Part shown: one piece after another, positions 1 through 19,054 of the stretch
Numbering within the stretch: position 1 is the first letter of the stretch
How the letters are laid out: each line of letters opens with the position of its first letter
Source of the DNA: Bradymonadia bacterium
Lineage (GTDB): Bacteria > Myxococcota_A > Bradymonadia > UBA7976 > UBA1532
Direction: 5' to 3'
DNA length: 19,054 nt
Assembly (NCBI GenBank): GCA_046290225.1
Contig: JBKAGE010000068.1
Span: 1 to 19,054, forward strand
The notes under the pieces: model-generated
The model's input: the letters and a program-made list of their open reading frames with translations, nothing else
The model's database searches: none
What the model was told of the DNA's origin: nothing
Program-made: the position numbers and the translations under genes

Positions 1-201
1 GGCCCCCATCCGTACGCTGTTCCCCACCGTCACACCTGCAGGCACCACAGACCCGGCGCCAATCACCGTGCTGTTTCCCACACTCCCGTTCACCGTCGCA
101 CCGTCGCCGATGCTCGCGTACGTCCCAATCGATGCACCCGCACCGATGATCAGGTTGCTCCCCAGCGTCGCCGTCTCCGGGATGTTCGCCAGCGGGCTCA
201 C
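1..201 (-). repeat. Hexapeptide repeat region (left-handed beta-helix), continues beyond the window
   Basis: VSPLAN IPETAT LGSNLI IGAGAS IGTYAS IGDGAT VNGS VGNSTV IGAGSV VPAGVT VGNSVR MGA: [LIV]-G-x4 periodicity. Confidence 0.8.
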
Positions 202-936
202 GCAGGCATCACCGTAAGTGTCACCGTTGTCATCCGTCTGATCGCCGTTGGCGATGGTGGGGCAGTTGTCCACGTCACCACAGACACCGTCGCCATCAAC
301 ATCATTGGCGGCGTCGGCGGGGCAGGCGTCACAGACATCACCAAGGCCGTCAGCATCACCATCAGCCTGATCAGCGTTGGCGCCATTGGGGCAGTTGTCC
401 ACATCATCGTTCACCCCGTCACCATCGGCGTCGGGGTTGGCGTTGGCGAAGAACATGACCTCGCGGATCTGACAACGGTGGTTGGCGAACTGAGCCTCGA
501 TGACGAACAGGCGAATCGCCCGCACACCTGCCACAGGGGCAAAGTTCGCCTCGACGGTGCTGGGGCCGTTGTCGACGGTGAACCCGCTCAAGTAGCTGAT
601 GCGGTTGCCCTGGCCATCGAGCATCTCAAGATCGAAGCGCTCGACCCCATCGTCATCAGAGCCAAAGTCGTTGTAGAGCCGAATCGACGACACCTCGACG
701 GCGCTGTTGAAGGTGAACTCGAAGTACTCCACTCCAGGGTCGATGTTCTGGAAGAACGAGCCACCAGAGCTCTCATTGAGATCACCGTTGATGAGGTTGC
801 CCGGCGTACCCGTAATGCCAGGAGCGGTCACTCCATCAGGGGTGGTCCACTGTGCCTGAGCGTTGGCAGCAGTCGAAAGGCCGGCGGTCAGCGCAACAGC
901 ACTGACTGCGGTGAGAATTCGATTCCGAATCCGCAT
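1..936 (-). CDS. Exported multidomain protein, runs off the left edge: Sec signal peptide + discoidin/F5-8C-like beta-sandwich + thrombospondin type-3 repeats + hexapeptide (left-handed beta-helix) repeats
   Basis: Hand-translated; absent from the ORF track because there is no stop in the window. ATG at 936 has GGAG upstream (alternative in-frame ATG at 960), and the frame is open for 312 codons to base 1. It begins MRIRNRILTAVSAVALTAGLSTAANAQAQW (basic n-region, hydrophobic core, AxA), then ...EYFEFTFNSAVEVSSIRLYND...VRAIRLFV...CQIREVMFF (discoidin-like), DADGDGVNDDVDNCPNGANADQADGDADGLGDVCD (TSP3) and LGSNLI-IGAGAS-IGTYAS-IGDGAT (hexapeptide). Confidence 0.88.
   Translation of the reverse strand, partial: MRIRNRILTAVSAVALTAGLSTAANAQAQWTTPDGVTAPGITGTPGNLINGDLNESSGGSFFQNIDPGVEYFEFTFNSAVEVSSIRLYNDFGSDDDGVERFDLEMLDGQGNRISYLSGFTVDNGPSTVEANFAPVAGVRAIRLFVIEAQFANHRCQIREVMFFANANPDADGDGVNDDVDNCPNGANADQADGDADGLGDVCDACPADAANDVDGDGVCGDVDNCPTIANGDQTDDNGDTYGDACVSPLANIPETATLGSNLIIGAGASIGTYASIGDGATVNGSVGNSTVIGAGSVVPAGVTVGNSVRMGA
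202..432 (-). repeat. Thrombospondin type-3 (Ca2+-binding) repeats
   Basis: Two DxDGDGV..DVDNCP..AN.DQ.D...D..GD.C units. An exact 16-nt DNA repeat tggggcagttgtccac occurs at 258-273 and 387-402, 43 codons apart. Confidence 0.9.
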
Positions 937-1063
937 GAGAGACTCCAGGGGTGTCGTCATGCGGTAGAGGATATCGATGATGTGTTACGAATACCACCCC
1001 TGATTACTCAGGCGCACACTTCGCACACAATGGGTCAGAGTATGTGATGTCGGGGCTGGACGA

Positions 1064-11454: not shown

Positions 11455-13049
11455 GCGCCACCACGGTGTTGATCACCCATCATCATCTGCCAGCCATCTC
11501 TCGTGACCACGTGGGTCAGCGCCCCGAGGGCTGCTGGGTGCTGCAGTATGTGCTCCACACCGCCCTGCCGCTGCTGCAGGTCACTGAAGGGCTCGTGGCC
11601 GACGGGGTGCCCTTCACCTTGGGCGCAGCCTTCACGCCCACCCTGCTCTGGCAGCTCTCAGATCCGAACCTGCCCCAGGCGTTTCGCCCCTGGCTCGCGG
11701 TGCAAAAGGCTGCCCACGAAGCCATACAGGCAGCGTGTGTCGACGCCAGCCTCCAGCCAGCGCTCGATGCCTGGAGCAGGCACCTCGAACGTCTCGGTGC
11801 CCTCTTCGAGAAGCTCGACGGTGACATCCTCGGCGCCTTTGTCGATCTGCACCGTCGTGGCCACCTGGAATTGCTCGTGGTGCCGGCGAGCCATGGCATC
11901 TTGCCGCTGACGGGTCTCGTCCCCCTCCAATTGCAGGCAGGTCTCACGGCCATCGAGCGCACCTTCGGTAGGCGACCCAAAGGCCTCTGGGTGCCCGAGG
12001 GGGCCATCTCACCTCAGCTCACAGTGGAGGCAGCCGCTCTGGGCTTCACCCATGCTCTCGTAGAGCCTGAGGCCCTCGGGGGCGCCCCGACCCTGCGCGA
12101 CACAGCAGGCCAGAGCACCCTGCTGTACATCAGCCGTGATGCAGGCTTTGCTCAAAGCCCAAAGGCCACTGACGCCGCCTACCCTGGCGCCTACGGCCTG
12201 CAAGTTGACGATCCGGCCACCAGGGCACTCCCCAATGGCGTGGCCATGGGCTATGCCCGCCTGCACACAGGTGATCGGCTGGGCGCCCCACTCTGGGCAC
12301 GGGGCGACGGCAGCTTCATCAAACAGCCATATGATCCCGAAGCCGCAGTGGCAGCTGCCCAGGCACACGCAGACAGCTGGGCCCGACACCAGTCAGAACA
12401 ACACCGTGTCGGCGCCATAGACGCCACCGCCATCACCGACCGCTGGCTCGAAGGCCCTGCCTTCCTCGATCATCTCTATCGGCATGGTGGAGTGGCGTGG
12501 GGCACCCTCGAAGCAGTAGCCGAGCAGAGCACCCCCTTGGCTGATCGCAGCCCTCAGCTCTACAGCCGAGGACCTCAGGGCGATTTGCAGTGGTGGTGTG
12601 ATACGGCCCACCACTGGCTGACCCCTCGAGTACAGGGCCTCGCCCGACGCCTGTCGGCGCTCACTGGGACCATCAAGAGCAACCAGGGCAAAGCCGCCCT
12701 CGCCCAAGGGGCTCGCGCCTGGCTGCTCGCCGCCGCCAGCGACTGGCCTGCCCTGATGAGCGCCGAGCGATGGGTCGACGTCGCCCTCTCCAATGTGCGG
12801 GCTCATCTGCACGCCTGTGCGCGTATTTGCGAGATGCTCGAGGGCAGTGACGGCCTGTTCGAAGAGGTCGATCGCACATGGCTCACGATGTACAGCGCCC
12901 AATGGTCGCTGTGGCCCGACCTCGATCTCGAAGTCATCACACCACAGACGCCGGCCTCTCTGGAGCCAGCACCTCAGGCGCCCCCTGGCCCCATGGCCCA
13001 CGCCGAGGACGACCATCCTCTACGTCTGAAGCCCGGTGAGTTCGTCTGA
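11451..13049 (+). CDS. GH57 family 1,4-alpha-glucan branching enzyme-like protein (DUF1957 C-terminus), divergent
   Basis: Start is ATG 11451 with an AGGAG RBS. Motifs: HHHLP (HxHLP), FTPTLLWQLSDP, SHGILPL, FGRRPKGLWVPEG (nucleophile Glu, 11997-11999), YDPEAA, AIDA...WLEGPAFL (acid/base Asp, 12420-12422), LLAAASDW. Confidence 0.85.
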   Translation: MSATTVLITHHHLPAISRDHVGQRPEGCWVLQYVLHTALPLLQVTEGLVADGVPFTLGAAFTPTLLWQLSDPNLPQAFRPWLAVQKAAHEAIQAACVDASLQPALDAWSRHLERLGALFEKLDGDILGAFVDLHRRGHLELLVVPASHGILPLTGLVPLQLQAGLTAIERTFGRRPKGLWVPEGAISPQLTVEAAALGFTHALVEPEALGGAPTLRDTAGQSTLLYISRDAGFAQSPKATDAAYPGAYGLQVDDPATRALPNGVAMGYARLHTGDRLGAPLWARGDGSFIKQPYDPEAAVAAAQAHADSWARHQSEQHRVGAIDATAITDRWLEGPAFLDHLYRHGGVAWGTLEAVAEQSTPLADRSPQLYSRGPQGDLQWWCDTAHHWLTPRVQGLARRLSALTGTIKSNQGKAALAQGARAWLLAAASDWPALMSAERWVDVALSNVRAHLHACARICEMLEGSDGLFEEVDRTWLTMYSAQWSLWPDLDLEVITPQTPASLEPAPQAPPGPMAHAEDDHPLRLKPGEFV

Positions 13050-13055
13050 GCCTGC

Positions 13056-15788
13056 TCAGTTCAGCGGATCACGCGAGCCCATGAGCCGAAAGTCCCGCCA
13101 CCCCTCGATCTCAGCCCTGACCACAGCTCGATAAGCACTGGCCGGCTGCTCGAGTCCACCTGCATCGATGAAGGCCCGCAAGAACGCCAATGCCACCTGC
13201 TCGTCCACAGTGCCCTCGGCGATGAGCAGGGTGCGCGTTCCCACAGCGAAGAAGGCGTCGACGAGCCCTTGAGACTCCATCGACCCTCCACGACGCTCAC
13301 CGCTGTGACATGCCATCACCAGCGCCAGCCGGGGCCCTGCCTCAAGAGAAAGCACATCGGCGAGCTCGAAGAGATCCCCACCCGCGAAGCGCAAGCAGTT
13401 CCCTTGAGCGCCACATGCAGCCTCACCATGACCCACGAAGACGAAGACCTCAGCCGCCGGCAGGGCGTCGAGCAGACGATCGCGGCTCACCTCTTCACCC
13501 ATGAGCAGCAACCCGTCAGACAAGTGTGAGTCAGCCAGCTGCGGCAGCACCTCACCCACATGCCCCAGGTTCTCTTCAGGATCGCCCACGATGACAGGTG
13601 GGTTGTGCTCGTCGCCCACACGTTTCGAGAGAAGGTGCGCGGGGCTCTGTAGATAGCTCAAGGTCACTCGAGCCGCCCATGGGGATCCATCCGGATCCAG
13701 CTCGCGGTGCACAACCTCAGCAGCGAGCGCGCCGCCCGTCGCCACATAGACATGCTCTGCCTCTGCAAAGATCTCGGGCCACTCGGACCACATCGACTCA
13801 GGCGTGGGCAACAGCGCATGATCGACCTCACCCTCGACGATCAGGAAGGTGTGCCAACTGCCCCTGAAGGCGAAAAGCATCACCAGGACCTCACCCTCAT
13901 CAAGGGCCGCGGAGATGCCTGGCAGGGTCAGCTTCTTTGGACTGGCTCTCAGATTGTGACCATCGAGCCAGAACAATAGATCTTCAAAGGCGATGTCCCG
14001 TGCTCGACGGGCTTGAGTGATTTGCACGTCTGTGCTCGGCTCAAGCCCCTGCCCCTGCCGCAGAGCCTCACCATAGACCTCACGGGCACGCTCGAGCGCG
14101 CCCACACGCTGTTGATACTCCGACAAAAACTCTGAGGGCAGATCACGTTGTGGATCGTTGAGAGGCACTGAGCTCATGAGCGTCGACTGAGCGCTGGCCA
14201 GCACAGTCGCCGCGCGGTCGATGTCGCCATGCTCCGTGAGTAGATCGAGATAATCGCCCACCAGATCTCGGTGAGCCGACATGAAACCGCTTCGATCCAC
14301 GCCAGGTGCCGTCCAACGACTGCGCTGTTCGATCTCTTTCATCGCCTCGTCGAACGCCTGCCACCCCTGGCCGTCGAGACCCAGAGCCACGAGAGCCTCT
14401 CCGAGCGCCGCCCGCGCCTGCCACCCGTAGACCGCCGCCTCTTCACTGAGGCGAGCGAGCCGGTCCGCATGGGCAAGATCGACGAGGGCACTGGCATACC
14501 GTCCCTCGGCGATCTTGAGCTTGCCCCATAGCAAATACAGCTCGGAATCATCCACCTCGGGGCACGCCTCAAGCGTGTGCCGCGCCGCATCAAGATCGCC
14601 GAGCCACAAGTAAAGCGACACGAGAACCATGCGCGCTTCTGAGACCCCTCGCTCATCCCCCATGGTGGCGTACTGCCTCGCTGAAGACTCCAGCAATGCC
14701 AACGCCTCCACCACGTCATCCGTGACCTCCCAATGGATCGCGTGCCGTACCAGCATCCACCCGCACATGGTCTTGAACCCTGCCTGAATCGTGGGCCAGC
14801 GTATGGCGCCTGCAGGCGGCGACGCGTCGCCTTGCATATAGGGGCCCATCACCCGGTCGCAGAGGTCCCGAGCAGCAGCAAAATCCCCGATGTATATCAG
14901 CGACTTGAGGACGCCTGACTGGGTGTAGATCCACAGAGCTTCGTGGTTGAGATGGTTCAAGCGCCGTGCGGCCGACTGATGCAAGCGCAACGCCCGCCGC
15001 AGGTACCCTTGCCGGGCAGCGACCCCTCCGGCCATGAGCTCTACAACGGCCCAGCCTGCTTCATCTGCCTTGGGTAGAAGGCGCCCTGCCCATCTGAACA
15101 ACGCCTCCGACTGATCGTATCGATTGGACTCCGAGCTCGCGTGCATGGCGGCGTTCAGCCGCGCGACGGCGAGATGTGTTGATCCTTCAGCCAGAGCAGC
15201 CCTGGCACCGAGCACCCACTCCTCTACAGCACGCTTCGCCTGCTGTTGATACCAGAACACCCGCCCACGCAAACGCCAGCCCCACTGACGCACCCCCAGC
15301 CCATGGGTGCTCGATGTGCTCAGCGCTTTTGCCTGAGCATACGCTTCGTCATAAGCCTTGGATGCGATCAGCGCGTCGATGGCCTTCACCTCGGGCAACG
15401 CTCTCGGATCAGGCCACCACTGCACACGCCAGCTCTGACTGCGGGCTTCACAGCGCACCACCAACTCGCTGGGGCCCAGCTGAGCGGGGGGCTCGAGCAC
15501 GCCCAGAATCAGCCAGCCATCGACCTGGACATCGCTGATTTTCAACACTTCTGGCACTGCACCACTGGCCTTCGACGTCACCGCACAGTGACGCAGCTCT
15601 CCGACCTGCTCGATCCGCCACCTGATGATGGGCAGTGATCGCCCGCTGAAGGCCCATTGATGAGGTGCTGGCCGTGTCGTGACATACCCGTGCAGCTGTG
15701 CAGACAAGGTGGATGGAGACTCACACCCCCACGCCAAAAGCATCAACGTTACCCACACAACACAGTGCTGCGGTGCAACATTCTTCAT
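13056..15788 (-). CDS. TPR-CHAT domain caspase-like (clan CD) protease 1, probable lipoprotein
   Basis: N-terminus MKNVAPQHCVVWVTLMLLAWG|C, then a beta-rich segment, a long TPR-like helical region, and a C-terminal CHAT domain: IVGDPEENL, FVFVGHG (His 13428-13430), LVMACHSG (Cys 13308-13310), GLVDAFFAVG, W..FRLMG. ATG 15788 is preferred over TTG 15794. Confidence 0.88.
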   Translation of the reverse strand: MKNVAPQHCVVWVTLMLLAWGCESPSTLSAQLHGYVTTRPAPHQWAFSGRSLPIIRWRIEQVGELRHCAVTSKASGAVPEVLKISDVQVDGWLILGVLEPPAQLGPSELVVRCEARSQSWRVQWWPDPRALPEVKAIDALIASKAYDEAYAQAKALSTSSTHGLGVRQWGWRLRGRVFWYQQQAKRAVEEWVLGARAALAEGSTHLAVARLNAAMHASSESNRYDQSEALFRWAGRLLPKADEAGWAVVELMAGGVAARQGYLRRALRLHQSAARRLNHLNHEALWIYTQSGVLKSLIYIGDFAAARDLCDRVMGPYMQGDASPPAGAIRWPTIQAGFKTMCGWMLVRHAIHWEVTDDVVEALALLESSARQYATMGDERGVSEARMVLVSLYLWLGDLDAARHTLEACPEVDDSELYLLWGKLKIAEGRYASALVDLAHADRLARLSEEAAVYGWQARAALGEALVALGLDGQGWQAFDEAMKEIEQRSRWTAPGVDRSGFMSAHRDLVGDYLDLLTEHGDIDRAATVLASAQSTLMSSVPLNDPQRDLPSEFLSEYQQRVGALERAREVYGEALRQGQGLEPSTDVQITQARRARDIAFEDLLFWLDGHNLRASPKKLTLPGISAALDEGEVLVMLFAFRGSWHTFLIVEGEVDHALLPTPESMWSEWPEIFAEAEHVYVATGGALAAEVVHRELDPDGSPWAARVTLSYLQSPAHLLSKRVGDEHNPPVIVGDPEENLGHVGEVLPQLADSHLSDGLLLMGEEVSRDRLLDALPAAEVFVFVGHGEAACGAQGNCLRFAGGDLFELADVLSLEAGPRLALVMACHSGERRGGSMESQGLVDAFFAVGTRTLLIAEGTVDEQVALAFLRAFIDAGGLEQPASAYRAVVRAEIEGWRDFRLMGSRDPLN

Positions 15789-15840
15789 GGCCAACCCTGG
15801 ACAATCACTCGATTTAGGGTCATGGTGTGTCCCAGTTGGG

Positions 15841-15859
15841 TGGTCTGCAGAACAGACCA
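15841..15859. promoter_or_regulatory. Perfect 7-bp inverted repeat in the 80-bp CHAT1/ECF divergent intergenic region
   Basis: TGGTCTG-cagaa-CAGACCA, abutting the putative RBS (AGGCGG) of the sigma gene. Function is inferred only. Confidence 0.4.
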
Positions 15860-15868
15860 GGCGGTGCG

Positions 15869-16444
15869 ATGAGCTCTAAAAACTTCGAAGACCAACAGCT
15901 GATCCATGACTGCCTCACCGGCCGTGAGCACTTCGTAGAACTCTATGCCCGCATCAACCCGATGATCATCAGCCAGCTGCGCCGGCTGTGCATCGGGGCG
16001 ACCCCGCTGACCGTCGACGACAGCGCACAAGCCCTGTGGGTGCGCTTGCTCTTGAACGACGGCAGCAACCTCAAAAAATATGACCCGAAACGGGGTGCCT
16101 TGACCACGTTCATGAGCACCACCACGTTCAATTTCTTCCGTGAACTCTCCAAAAAAAACCAAGACCCCATCGTCGATCCGAGTGCCCTGGACGACAAACC
16201 AAGTACGGACATGCCTGTTGATGAGCGACTCGCCTTGAGCAAGGAACTTCAGCGGCTACGCGAGCATCTAGAGAAAACATTGTCGGCCCAACAGCGCGCA
16301 GTGATGGCCATGCACTTTTTCGATGGGCGCTCAGCCTCGGACATCGCTGCGCTGCTCGGAAAAAAGACACAGATAATCTACAACGATATCTACAAGATAC
16401 GAGAGGCGGCCCGCGCTTTCGTCAAAAAAGATGAGGCGCCGTAG
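15869..16444 (+). CDS. ECF-type RNA polymerase sigma-70 factor
   Basis: 191 aa with sigma2 (EDQQLIHDCL...FVELY...VDDSAQALWVRLL...YDPKRGALTTF) and sigma4 (LSAQQRAVMAMHFFDGRSASDIAALLG...IYKIRE). ATG 15869 is preferred over GTG 15827. Confidence 0.9.
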   Translation: MSSKNFEDQQLIHDCLTGREHFVELYARINPMIISQLRRLCIGATPLTVDDSAQALWVRLLLNDGSNLKKYDPKRGALTTFMSTTTFNFFRELSKKNQDPIVDPSALDDKPSTDMPVDERLALSKELQRLREHLEKTLSAQQRAVMAMHFFDGRSASDIAALLGKKTQIIYNDIYKIREAARAFVKKDEAP

Positions 16445-16515
16445 TTAGAAAATGTCGATCGCGACCCTACATACATATAGAGCGGCGGGCCTCAAGACCG
16501 AGTGGAACACACCAC

Positions 16516-16548
16516 CTGTACCCCTTCTTCCCGATTCCGGGGGTACAG
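16516..16548. other. Stem-loop in the sigma/anti-sigma spacer
   Basis: ctgtacccc (16516-16524) and ggggtacag (16540-16548) form a perfect 9-bp stem with a 15-nt loop. There is no U-tract, so it is not called a terminator. Confidence 0.55.
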
Positions 16549-16594
16549 ATTCAGCAGACCAAGGTTGTGGGGGGGTCTGTCGATGAGGGGTGGG

Positions 16595-17407
16595 ATGAAA
16601 CACGATCACACAGAACACGACGACATCGACACCTACATCAAGGCGCTCGACCCGGGAGCGACAGGCCAGGAAGAGCGCCTCGATGACGCCACCTTACTGG
16701 CCTGGCGAGCCGGCCAGTTGTCAGACTCAGAACGTGAGACGGTCATGTTGCGCCTGGCCGAGTGCCGAGCGTCTCGTGAGCGGCTCTACGCGCTGGCCCA
16801 ACAAGAGACAGACTCATCTGAGCCAGCCACGGTGGAGCCTGCATCAAACGTAGTGCCTCTACCTGCCTCCAACAGTGCTTCCCCCAACCGACGCACCTTC
16901 ATCCAAATCAGTACGGGTCTCGCAGCAGCGGCGGCATTGACTGTGGGTGTGCTCACCTACGGCGGTGGCCCTGTGGGGCAAGATGCGCCCGATTTGGAGT
17001 TTGGCAGGGCTCAGGGTGTGCGACAGACCCAGCTCGGCGACGGGCCCAACGTCGCTGGCCGAGGCACTCCACAGGCACCTCTTGAGTTCGCACCTCACGG
17101 TAACTTCAAAATAAGGCTGATGGGTCACACCACCAGCGACACTGTGGGTGTCTTCGAGGAGCGAGATGGCATACTGCACCGCCTCGAAGCTGCGACCCAC
17201 ACTCTCCCCTCCCACACTGGCGGCCCCGACGATCTCTTCATCAAGGTGAAAATTGCTCAACTCAGCGACGGAGATCAGGCCAAGCACCTGCTCATCGCCG
17301 TGGGCGACACTGCGGGTGACGTCGACGCGCTGAAGGGTGCAAAGCGCACTGTACTGGACGACGACTGGGCCCCAGGGCGCTGGTCTTCCTTCTGGCTGAG
17401 TCGCTGA
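16595..17407 (+). CDS. Putative membrane-anchored anti-sigma factor (degenerate zf-HC2/ZAS domain + TM + extracytoplasmic domain)
   Basis: Directly downstream of the ECF gene. LDDATLLAWRAGQLSDSERETVMLRLAECRASRERL matches the anti-sigma pattern L..Y..G.L...E...VE.HL..C..C. It continues with a NVVPL linker, the hydrophobic helix ISTGLAAAAALTVGVLTY and a beta-rich C-terminus. ATG 16595 follows GAGG. Confidence 0.8.
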   Translation: MKHDHTEHDDIDTYIKALDPGATGQEERLDDATLLAWRAGQLSDSERETVMLRLAECRASRERLYALAQQETDSSEPATVEPASNVVPLPASNSASPNRRTFIQISTGLAAAAALTVGVLTYGGGPVGQDAPDLEFGRAQGVRQTQLGDGPNVAGRGTPQAPLEFAPHGNFKIRLMGHTTSDTVGVFEERDGILHRLEAATHTLPSHTGGPDDLFIKVKIAQLSDGDQAKHLLIAVGDTAGDVDALKGAKRTVLDDDWAPGRWSSFWLSR

Positions 17408-17422
17408 GCAAGGATCAGCAAC

Positions 17423-18937
17423 TCAACGCAGGCCCACGACGCGGAAGCGGCCCCAATCGAGGGTACTGCCCTCCTCCACAAGTTGGGAAACCACAGTCTT
17501 GTAGGCCTTCGCGGGGTTTTGCGCCCCACCTGCAGCGAGGAACCTCTTCAGAAACTCCAGGGCTTCAGCTTCGGGCACGGCACCTTCAGCCACGAGCACA
17601 GTCTCCGTGCCCACCGCGAGGAAGGCTTCCGTGAGGCCTATGGACTCAGAGATCGCCAAACGTGCCGACTCACTGCTATGACATGCAATGATGAGGACAA
17701 CTCGAGGGCCCACACCCATTTCCAGAATGTCCATTGCGCCAAACATGGCGCCTTCAGCCAGCCCCAAACAGTTTCCTAGTTGCTCGCACTCACGATATCC
17801 ATGGCCTACGAAGATGACAGCATCGGAGCGAGACAGCTCTGAAATCAAGGCGGCACGTGTCACCTCATCTCCCATTTTCAGTTGAACAGCTGGGCCAAGG
17901 GTCTCTTCAATCAGATTGGGGAGCCCGGTGCTCATCAGGCCCAAATCGAGGTTCGGGTCACCAAAGACTGAAACGACCTCCCCTTGCTCCGACATACTTC
18001 CGAGGATTCGGTCTACGCTGGGTAAATAGCTGAGTGTCAGCTTACTGGCCCAAGGAGTCCCATGTTCATCGAGTGTCCTATGCAAGGTGTTGGCACCTGG
18101 AAACCCACCTGTAGACACATACAAGTGAGCCGACTGTCCAATGATCTGAGGCCATTCATCAAAAGCGTTACTTGGCTGCTTCAGCACCCTGAAGTACAGC
18201 CTCCCGCGACTCAGCAAAAAAGCATACCACTCACCTCGTGAAGGGTAGAGCACCAAGAGAGACTGCTCATCTGTCAGGGAGTTGGACAACTGTTGCTGAT
18301 CTACCGCCCCTATCGAAATCGAACTCGAACCTTCCTCCAGCCACTCGACAAGCGACTCAAAAGCAATGGTTCGCTCAACTCTTGCAGAAAACACACACTG
18401 TTCAAAAGCACTATCAGACACACCCGCGCACTGTTTTACGGCCCGATCGAACCGCTCTGTGGCCTGCTCAAAGTCTCTAACACACTCTAAATACTCATTC
18501 TTCCTATCACCTTCAAGACCACTCATATCAACATTAGAACCAATACTTCTAACCAATAGCCCCTGACCCCTAATTGCAACTAAAAATGCTTTATCAAAAT
18601 CATGAATCTTAACAAGGGACTCCATATAATCTCTTATTAAAGTACGCCTTGAGCCTAAAAACCGAGCTCTTCCAAGGCCAAACGGCATCATCATACTGTC
18701 ACTTATTAACTCATCAAATGCCCTCTCATATATTTCAATAGCATCCCCTAAATGACCTAATGTGCTATAAATATGACCTTGCAAAACCGAAATACGCCAA
18801 GCCCATGTAAGCTGATACTCTTGAGCCATATGAGATTGTTTTGCTTGATTCAATAGACTTACTGCATTATCTACATTCCCCTCAGCAAGAGAAATAGCAC
18901 TTCGACTAAAAAAATATGACACATGCTCGGTGAGCAC
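17423..18937 (-). CDS. TPR-CHAT domain caspase-like protease 2, paralog of 13056..15788; probably the 3' part of a longer frameshifted gene
   Basis: Collinear with CHAT1: HLYVSTGG/HVYVATGG, GTPWASKLTLSYL/GSPWAARVTLSYL, FGDPNLDLG/VGDPEENLG, IFVGHG (His 17801-17803), IIACHSS (Cys 17681-17683), GLTEAFLAVGT, W.RFRVVG. The GTG at 18937 has no clear RBS, and there is an in-frame TAA upstream at 18989-18991. Confidence 0.85.
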   Translation of the reverse strand: MLTEHVSYFFSRSAISLAEGNVDNAVSLLNQAKQSHMAQEYQLTWAWRISVLQGHIYSTLGHLGDAIEIYERAFDELISDSMMMPFGLGRARFLGSRRTLIRDYMESLVKIHDFDKAFLVAIRGQGLLVRSIGSNVDMSGLEGDRKNEYLECVRDFEQATERFDRAVKQCAGVSDSAFEQCVFSARVERTIAFESLVEWLEEGSSSISIGAVDQQQLSNSLTDEQSLLVLYPSRGEWYAFLLSRGRLYFRVLKQPSNAFDEWPQIIGQSAHLYVSTGGFPGANTLHRTLDEHGTPWASKLTLSYLPSVDRILGSMSEQGEVVSVFGDPNLDLGLMSTGLPNLIEETLGPAVQLKMGDEVTRAALISELSRSDAVIFVGHGYRECEQLGNCLGLAEGAMFGAMDILEMGVGPRVVLIIACHSSESARLAISESIGLTEAFLAVGTETVLVAEGAVPEAEALEFLKRFLAAGGAQNPAKAYKTVVSQLVEEGSTLDWGRFRVVGLR

Positions 18938-18939
18938 AA

Positions 18940-19053
18940 CTACACTATCAAGATGTTTGAGGTGGACCCCAAATCTTGGACATGTAGGTTAAATAAGACC
19001 GACATGTCGGATAGGGGTTCAAGATGGGTCGCAGGAAGCGACGAAATTTCACT
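18940..19053 (-). pseudogene. Probable upstream, out-of-frame segment of CHAT protease 2 (extends beyond the window)
   Basis: The frame starting at 19053 reads SEISSLPATHLEPLSDMSVLFNLHVQDLGSTSNILIV*. VLFNLHVQDLG aligns with CHAT1 VSLYLWLGDLD, just before the point where the main CHAT2 frame picks up (LKHLDS vs RHTLEA). Only 37 codons are visible. Confidence 0.5.
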
Positions 19054-19054
19054 C

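Follow-up and report, generated by a model that had tools for sequence, protein, structure and literature searches.

An exported TPR-CHAT protease linked to an ECF sigma factor and its membrane anti-sigma in a Bradymonadia bacterium: a module resembling a split DdvS/DdvA

Can a caspase-like protease outside the cytoplasm switch on a sigma factor independently of CRISPR? The question is raised by a stretch of 19,054 nucleotides (the window) from a Bradymonadia bacterium (assembly GCA_046290225.1, contig JBKAGE010000068.1), in which a gene for a protease with a tetratricopeptide repeat (TPR) arm and a CHAT domain, CHAT1, diverges from a gene encoding a sigma factor of the extracytoplasmic function (ECF) type, followed by an anti-sigma gene and a convergent second CHAT frame, CHAT2. 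An earlier note, made from the letters of this stretch, had proposed that the two proteases bracket the sigma/anti-sigma pair and that a CHAT cuts the anti-sigma, with the type III-E Craspase and the Haliangium type III-B locus as models. We found that the exported-CHAT/sigma/anti-sigma module is real and conserved, whereas the two-CHAT bracket is not conserved, and that the locus works like a split version of DdvS/DdvA of Myxococcus xanthus; it is not a member of the DdvA type, because its CHAT is not fused to the anti-sigma. The mechanism that we propose, in which CHAT1 would cut the anti-sigma linker and free the sigma, has even chances in our estimate. Profile and sequence searches bore out the four genes, the 80-bp divergent spacing of CHAT1 and the sigma, the convergent CHAT2 frame (its end, at 17423, is separated from the anti-sigma stop by 15 bp) and the GHG and ACHS dyad motifs of both CHATs (H787 and C827, respectively, in CHAT1). 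The PF12770 and Sigma70_r4_2 searches that the note had suggested returned matches, and the sigma scored 45.2 bits with TIGR02937, compared to a cut-off of 42.9.

The note had named conservation of the neighbourhood beforehand as a test of its proposal. Homologous sigma loci were collected with a profile of five sigmas, i.e., the window sigma and its paralogs on contigs C35, C38, C76 and C78, with the paralog on C2 left out. Named genome contigs contributed 29 loci and matches of at least 150 bits in relatives another 29, and removal of 12 duplicates left 46; the 14 relatives' matches below 150 bits lie outside this set, and at least 11 of them, among the matches listed, are within 8 kb of a CHAT. 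The genomes carry Myxococcota labels, several of them Bradymonadia, and are kin, so that the counts are not independent. The CHAT family is present at 31 of the 46 loci (29 with a CHAT domain, two cut by contig ends), the anti-sigma at 40 and a secreted S8 subtilase, which is an addition relative to DdvS/DdvA, at 24; at two loci a C14 caspase takes the place of S8. The combination of CHAT and anti-sigma without S8 occurs at six loci, at least three of them with long flanks, and the one S8 locus at which no CHAT was seen (L054) is a contig of just 6.9 kb. Of the 15 loci without CHAT, ten are flanked by 6.7 kb or more of sequence on either side and five are too short to judge; the well-flanked ones that were scanned adjoin kinases, TonB receptors, MoxR or housekeeping genes. 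As an in-genome control, a CHAT was found within 8 kb for seven of 50 sigma-like open reading frames (ORFs), among them all four best paralogs of the window sigma (C35, C38, C76 and C78), whereas the fifth (C2) is not CHAT-adjacent. The linkage of sigma and CHAT is more than chance would give. Gene order is variable; locus L061 has the window layout, with CHAT divergent from the sigma and the anti-sigma after the sigma, and S8 in the place of CHAT2. Two module CHATs occur at none of the 46 loci, and a second CHAT of another type lies near some sigmas (C78, G008:C4, G008:C57).

Following another suggestion of the note, the search for cas genes and further CHATs was carried beyond the window. 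There are 11 CHAT matches in the genome and no Cas1 (PF01867) or RAMP (PF03787) match anywhere in it (8.58 Mb in 83 contigs, 99% complete). A crude 20-mer scan of the genome found no CRISPR array, and CRISPR-like repeats were not found in window 12000-19054. The absence of cas genes and array, claimed for the window, was seen genome-wide for Cas1 and RAMP and, by the crude scan, for arrays.

In an AlphaFold2 (AF2) model with a predicted local distance difference test score (pLDDT) of 78.6, CHAT1 consists of a signal, Cys22, a beta-sandwich (residues ~30-124), a TPR arm (~132-539), a long helical hairpin (552-611) and the CHAT domain (~630-905). The top Foldseek ranks of this model were separase (6e-13), DdvA (8rw5, 5e-12) and Craspase (3e-11). 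A phmmer search of CHAT1 against PDB sequences gave no match, and the best natural CHAT match of the family profile in the PDB was DdvA (8rot, E = 4.8e-14). At the two dyad columns, His and Cys occur without exception in the family CHAT domains (33 of 33). Both window CHATs start with a lipoprotein-type signal that the earlier note had missed (that of CHAT2 is on its 5' half, on contig C42), and 24 of 29 CHATs of the family have a hydrophobic stretch with a Cys at 816-930 residues from the C-terminus; the signals were called by our own hydrophobicity rule, not by SignalP. This family pattern favours the longer start of CHAT1 (910 residues, with the signal). Because of the signal, CHAT1 is predicted to face the periplasm, and with the transmembrane (TM) segment and ectodomain of the anti-sigma, protease and anti-sigma ectodomain are therefore predicted to share this compartment. 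Acidic residues follow the first strand (D736, L1) and the fifth strand (D863, L5), each in 32 of 33 family CHATs. In clan CD, P1 specificity is set by L1/alpha1, L4 and L5, with acidic residues in Arg-specific enzymes (PMC4357240); with CHAT mapped by strand order, D736 and D863 would lie in the predicted P1-specificity regions.

The AF2 model of the anti-sigma has a three-helix domain (31-73), one TM helix (102-120), a disordered linker (124-156, with pLDDT below 50 at residues 141-156) and a periplasmic beta-sandwich (170-269). Foldseek returned no match to this model at E<=0.001, with weak Ig-like matches only. The family profile matches the ChrR anti-sigma domain (E = 5.6e-6), and the zinc motif HxxxCxxC is present in 83 of 148 anti-sigma homologs; the corresponding positions in the window protein are R53, C57 and S60, and the ligands are also lost in all four in-genome paralogs. 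The membrane anti-sigma of the earlier note stands, with a single TM helix, and the zf-HC2 check that it proposed gave no Pfam match. The window sigma lacks an N-terminal hydrophobic segment that is found in most relatives. With starts as called, most sigmas of the clade open with such a segment of 13-20 residues just before region 2 (mean hydropathy ~2-3.5; examples are L014:7052-7699, L015:4021-4689, L017:4044-4697 and L012:5675-6337), which could be a membrane tether or a pro-sequence that is removed by proteolysis.

What would CHAT1 cut? In the best 150 of 229 representative anti-sigma homologs at E<=1e-30, the disordered linker carries the motif G-x5-R-[GSA] about 25 residues past the TM helix: the Gly is present in 149 of 150, and the Arg position holds Arg in 137, Lys in seven and Leu in one. 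The slightly wider form G-x5-R-[GSADT] was found in 130 of 148 homologs, compared to 29 of 148 in a control window of equal length. This conserved motif in a periplasmic linker is the new element here, a candidate for the bond at which CHAT would act as site-1 protease. A complex prediction with alignments for CHAT1 124-910 and the anti-sigma ectodomain 123-270 gave no answer and was counted neither way.

The closest model for the locus is DdvS/DdvA, not Craspase or the Haliangium system as had been proposed, because CHAT1 is exported. Like the window, DdvS/DdvA (PDB 8rot, 8rw5, 8rlz) has an ECF sigma, an anti-sigma that spans the membrane once and opens with a domain of the ZAS type, which the ChrR match suggests for the window family, and a His-Cys TPR-CHAT in the periplasm, a location predicted for CHAT1. 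However, the TPR-CHAT of DdvA is fused to the anti-sigma, whereas here it is a separate lipoprotein, encoded on the opposite strand, with an N-terminal beta-sandwich; the window anti-sigma ends in a small beta-sandwich of its own and, unlike DdvA, has lost the zinc ligands. Some DdvA-like pairs are described as controlling an adjacent CBASS or CRISPR island, whereas the window has no CBASS or CRISPR genes nearby. The DdvA study proposes a site-1 role for CHAT, with a cut in the flexible juxtamembrane linker that is followed by RseP, and reports RseP cleavage for truncated forms after loss of the ectodomain (PMC11506125).

We infer an analogous sequence of steps for the window locus. Judging by family homology, the N-terminal three-helix domain of the anti-sigma would tether the ECF sigma to the inner membrane, and CHAT1 would be a membrane-anchored periplasmic lipoprotein. 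An extracytoplasmic ligand, which TPR chemistry and the discussion of DdvA suggest is most likely a protein, would bind the beta-sandwich or TPR arm and align His787 with Cys827, in analogy to DdvA and Craspase. CHAT1 would then cut the linker ~25 residues past the TM helix at G-x5-(R/L)-G, an RseP-type site-2 protease would cut the TM helix, as was shown for truncated DdvA, and degradation of the cytoplasmic stub would free the sigma for its presumed regulon. Four ORFs of the genome carry site-2-protease motifs. The window copy would represent a lineage-specific, fast-diverged version of this switch, without the usual S8, in which CHAT was duplicated and the second copy was recently inactivated by an insertion sequence (IS). 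The core idea of the earlier note, a CRISPR-independent TPR-CHAT that cuts a membrane anti-sigma, withstands the neighbourhood test that the note had set; the linkage and the conserved candidate Arg site speak for it, cleavage stays a prediction, and the Craspase model and the paired receptors fall away.

The window copy differs from its family. At 36 well-conserved CHAT columns, CHAT1 shows 16 departures and CHAT2 13, compared to six at most in relatives. Each of the 13 columns at which CHAT2 departs is a departure in CHAT1 too, eight of them to the same residue; among the shared changes are D863E, H783, G826A, T829S and the loss of the Pro-Trp that follows the catalytic His. In addition, both domains gained a Cys pair in the His loop (792/798), which could form a disulfide. 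Since these new residues are kept in two domains that are only 41% identical, they suggest changed specificity over decay. In the sigma, the sigma4 helix is changed at two columns that are conserved at 85% or more among 50 relatives. Close relatives of the CHAT1/CHAT2 pair were not found at E<=1e-20 among 8000 scored candidates, nor in metagenome contigs; at E<=1e-30, with three candidates scored per genome, one of 300 genomes of the phylum had a match. A more specific reading is that the CHATs are dedicated ligand-gated site-1 proteases acting at G-x5-R|[GSA], and that the window copy was re-wired by joint change of P1, the specificity loops and the sigma4 helix; we put it forward tentatively and consider it rather unlikely to hold in full. 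If true, the re-wired copy would form a channel of its own, insulated within a set of at least five paralogous modules that share one periplasm.

CHAT2 turned out to be half a gene. Its open frame of 521 residues (PF12770, 47.8 bits) aligns to CHAT1 residues 424-906 only, with 35% identity, and the window stops inside a repeated element, one end of which makes up its final 97 bases (Table 1). The 5' half lies at C42:99-1370(-), with 22% identity to CHAT1 11-403 (E = 1e-16); tblastn with the N-terminal half of CHAT1 as query likewise matched the start of C42 (E = 2e-12). The C42 frame opens with a hydrophobic signal and a Cys, and then enters a 97-base end that is common to C52 and C80. The two types of element ends are mutual inverted repeats (20 of the first 25 bases are shared in inverted orientation), and the same 3-bp triplet stands beside the ends on C42 and C68, the latter contig being the entire window, and beside none of the other three ends. 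The reconstructed empty-site allele is one stop-free frame of 934 codons, 28% identical to CHAT1 over 11-906, and GC content at third codon positions (GC3) is continuous over the join (0.30, then 0.25). The half frames, inverted repeats, shared triplet and stop-free empty site therefore identify CHAT2, as far as sequence can tell, as a full paralog that was recently interrupted by an insertion element; the evidence for the C42-IS-C68 join is homology plus the target duplication rather than reads. That CHAT2 might be naturally short and cytoplasmic had been considered and was rejected when its 5' half turned up with a signal, and a group II intron as the insert was dropped on finding the inverted repeats and target duplication.

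CHAT1 and CHAT2 are sisters in a quick tree (SH-aLRT 100) on a long branch of 1.31, and none of the related loci carries a pair of module CHATs; the pair is therefore read as a local duplication, of which CHAT1 is now the sole intact protease at the locus. Two CHAT frames do flank the sigma/anti-sigma pair, as noted earlier, and the supposed bracket comes down to this duplication with one IS-interrupted copy. The idea that the pair forms alternative receptors or a cascade fails in this assembly, because CHAT2 is interrupted and the related loci lack a second module CHAT. From its end features, the element, whose body is not assembled, is probably IS3-like. It resembles the IS3 family in its terminal inverted repeats (TG start, CA end), 3-bp target duplication and copies at several contig ends, whereas an orfA/orfB DDE transposase is not visible, the element body being outside the assembly. 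One rve_2 match, on C19, is not linked to the element ends, and a plasmid comparison of the element gave no informative match. Element ends were seen at contigs C11, C42, C52, C68 and C80, three of one kind and two of the other; since only C42 and C68 share the target triplet, further copies exist. A secreted protein of 230 residues without a Pfam match is encoded at L111:1875-2567 (C42), on the same strand as the CHAT2 5' half and some 500 bp upstream of it. The sensor arms of several CHAT paralogs contain patches of low GC3 (0.25-0.5; window 18400-18957, C42, C76, C37, C38 and C73), with 0.25-0.38 in the middle of CHAT2, whereas the genome median is 0.80 and the first percentile 0.59. The patches point to replacement of segments or to fast drift; a general low-GC3 signature of TPR regions was rejected for the relatives (11 of 27).

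Several observations weigh against CHAT1 as the enzyme that releases the sigma. No CHAT is known to cut a membrane anti-sigma. In DdvA, dyad mutants behaved as wild type, phage Mx4 triggered no cleavage, and no CHAT activity is reported (PMC11506125). The sigma profile was built from five CHAT-linked sigmas, chosen by similarity and with the non-linked paralog omitted, and may favour CHAT-linked matches. At loci where no CHAT domain was found nearby (at two of these a CHAT is cut by the contig end), every full-length anti-sigma (13 of 13) retains the linker Arg, which may therefore be structural or a target of another protease; the usual CHAT residues are kept at three family loci where this position is Met, Gln or Lys, and thus simple covariation is not seen. 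The intact S8 at 24 of the 46 loci is an alternative site-1 enzyme. CHAT could accordingly be a receptor, an inhibitor or an output of the regulon, or could cut a foreign or envelope protein, the anti-sigma being cut by S8 or by a housekeeping periplasmic protease. The catalytic D-H-N-S set of S8, intact in 28 of 28 sequences, fits such a role, as do the ten well-flanked sigma loci without CHAT, where the seven detected anti-sigmas keep the Arg motif, and two pairs of CHAT and S8 without a sigma nearby (C73:17142-22379 and C37:183921-191122). However, the set of CHAT, anti-sigma and sigma recurs without S8 at six loci and at the window locus, and Arg before a small residue suits the specificity of clan CD better than that of a broad subtilase; we consider this alternative unlikely. 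The two enzymes may also form a periplasmic cascade, in which CHAT activates an S8 zymogen, S8 cuts the anti-sigma or the trigger, and the window locus borrows one of five genomic S8 paralogs. The pairing of CHAT with S8 genes is indeed tight, and the distances of the two show a correlation (Mantel r = 0.50, n = 24) that shared ancestry alone can give; two loci have a C14 caspase in the place of S8; and SAVED-CHAT is described as activating PCaspase, which cuts a sigma factor (bioRxiv 2023.06.23.546230). Conversely, S8 was found neither on C68 nor at the start of C42, and the window CHATs are the most diverged of the family in the active-site loops, which makes cross-activation of distant S8 paralogs doubtful. 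A cascade is improbable in our estimate.

It should be noted that the window anti-sigma has Leu147 where the family has Arg, and that this loss, together with the column departures of CHAT1, could be decay. The window copy would then be a relic under relaxed selection that no longer signals, having lost S8, the zinc ligands and the Arg, acquired an IS and drifted towards AT. The branch length, the 16 and 13 departures, the insertion, the GC3 of the CHAT2 middle and the lack of a close relative in the searches above are what such a relic would show. On the other hand, the frames of CHAT1, the sigma and the anti-sigma are fully open, the CHAT2 empty site is free of stops over its 934 codons, and the changes shared by CHAT1 and CHAT2, with the new Cys pair, look like selection on a new state; decay has a slim chance as the full explanation. 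The database gene call for CHAT1 (883 residues) also counts against an exported protease, since its later start would drop the signal peptide. This start and the likeness to the Csx29 fold would suit a Craspase-like enzyme that cuts the cytoplasmic part of the anti-sigma on an intracellular signal. We regard this as very improbable: lipoprotein signals are present family-wide and on both window paralogs, the genome lacks RAMP and Cas1 matches, and the linker that is conserved and exposed faces the periplasm.

Among other known systems, ECF54 sigmas lie near TPR-CHAT and subtilase genes, and proteolytic control has been proposed for them (PMC7826278, PMC8999054). The window family resembles ECF54 in carrying both proteases, the window locus in CHAT only. 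However, ECF54 is described there as 100% Actinobacteria, without a putative anti-sigma and with a carboxypeptidase-regulatory-like gene at +1, whereas the window family is found in Myxococcota with a membrane anti-sigma. The likeness to Craspase is that the TPR-CHAT Csx29 cuts an anti-sigma, Csx30, in trans and thereby relieves an ECF-like sigma, CASP-sigma; that system is cytoplasmic, activated by Cas7-11 and target RNA, and has a soluble anti-sigma (PMC10028731), in contrast to the signals on both CHATs and the TM anti-sigma of the window. Similarly, the Haliangium type III-B SAVED-CHAT/PCaspase/PCc-sigma system links a CHAT to a second protease and a sigma, but is described as cA3-activated and cytoplasmic, with the sigma itself cut by the second protease, and the window has no SAVED domain (bioRxiv 2023.06.23.546230). 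A literature search, with most subscription papers outside its reach, listed none in which a TPR-CHAT that is separate and exported is described together with a membrane anti-sigma. The claim of the earlier note that no characterised system has this topology holds, within that search, for the separate exported version only, the idea itself having been proposed for DdvA and protease control for ECF54.

The DdvA work left the site-1 role of a periplasmic caspase fold open, and the fusion and the unknown trigger hampered its testing. The split layout offers separate enzyme and substrate, a named candidate bond kept in about nine of ten homologs, and a natural Arg-to-Leu control of specificity; the two-protease bracket adds little, being a local duplication with one copy broken. 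The module recurs many times in uncultured kin of predatory bacteria. Some relatives have up to 11 matches to the sigma clade per genome, and this may therefore be a major, unstudied route of envelope sensing in Bradymonadia-type predators. Features of the window are listed in Table 1.

Table 1. Positions of the module genes and associated features in the window
Feature	Position	Strand	Remarks
CHAT1	13056..15788	-	910-aa exported TPR-CHAT lipoprotein (predicted); PF12770 45.6 bits, E=8e-12
CHAT1 lipoprotein-type signal peptide	15723..15788	-	ends at Cys22; read from sequence
CHAT1 catalytic dyad	13308..13430	-	His787 13428-13430, Cys827 13308-13310
Divergent spacer CHAT1/sigma	15789..15868	.	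80 bp; sequence
ECF sigma factor	15869..16444	+	191 aa; TIGR02937, Sigma70_r4_2, alignment
Single-pass anti-sigma	16595..17407	+	270 aa (alternative start 16586); AF2 model, family profile
Anti-sigma linker motif G141-x5-L147-G148	17015..17038	+	family form G-x5-R-[GSA]; candidate site-1 cleavage site
CHAT2, 3' half of interrupted paralog	17423..18957	-	934-codon paralog; His 17801-17803, Cys 17681-17683
3-bp target-site duplication of insertion	18955..18957	-	same triplet beside the other element end on C42
End of multi-copy insertion element	18958..19054	.	contig stops inside the element; 99% identity over 95 bp to C11 start

The genes to the left of the module (a GH57 branching enzyme, DUF4912, a penicillin amidase and histidine kinases) look unrelated to it. 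A PADLOC scan of six proteins gave a single match, at the level of a helix-turn-helix, on the sigma, and an Rfam search gave none. Gibbs sampling of 33 upstream regions yielded no shared promoter motif (13.0 bits, compared to 11.3 bits in shuffled sequences, and nothing bipartite), and a scan for sigma70 promoters was at chance level. The 150-bp gap between the sigma and anti-sigma genes (16445-16594) is unusual for the family and contains a short inverted repeat at ~16520-16548, seen by eye.

Elsewhere in the genome and its relatives, an ORF of 613 residues follows the CHAT and S8 pair on C37 and has, in its C-terminal part, a weak match to the anti-sigma profile (39.7 bits). The variant module in which a C14 caspase lipoprotein replaces S8 was seen at C78:360875-370169 (L012), L075 and L077; the C78 module is followed in tandem by another exported TPR-CHAT, which differs from the first. 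C55:56476-58146 holds a sigma/anti-sigma pair of the same kind that is more distant (103.8 and 52.2 bits), on a contig with no CHAT match. At L054:3058-6927, a protein with RHS, FG-GAP and SpvB domains is encoded directly downstream of the family sigma and S8, and is a possible member of the regulon there. Finally, a secreted protein is encoded at window 1-960, where the contig start truncates it; the DNA there and the start of C74 share 88% identity, and the repeats of the protein are presumably of Asp-rich calcium-binding-like and hexapeptide-like types.

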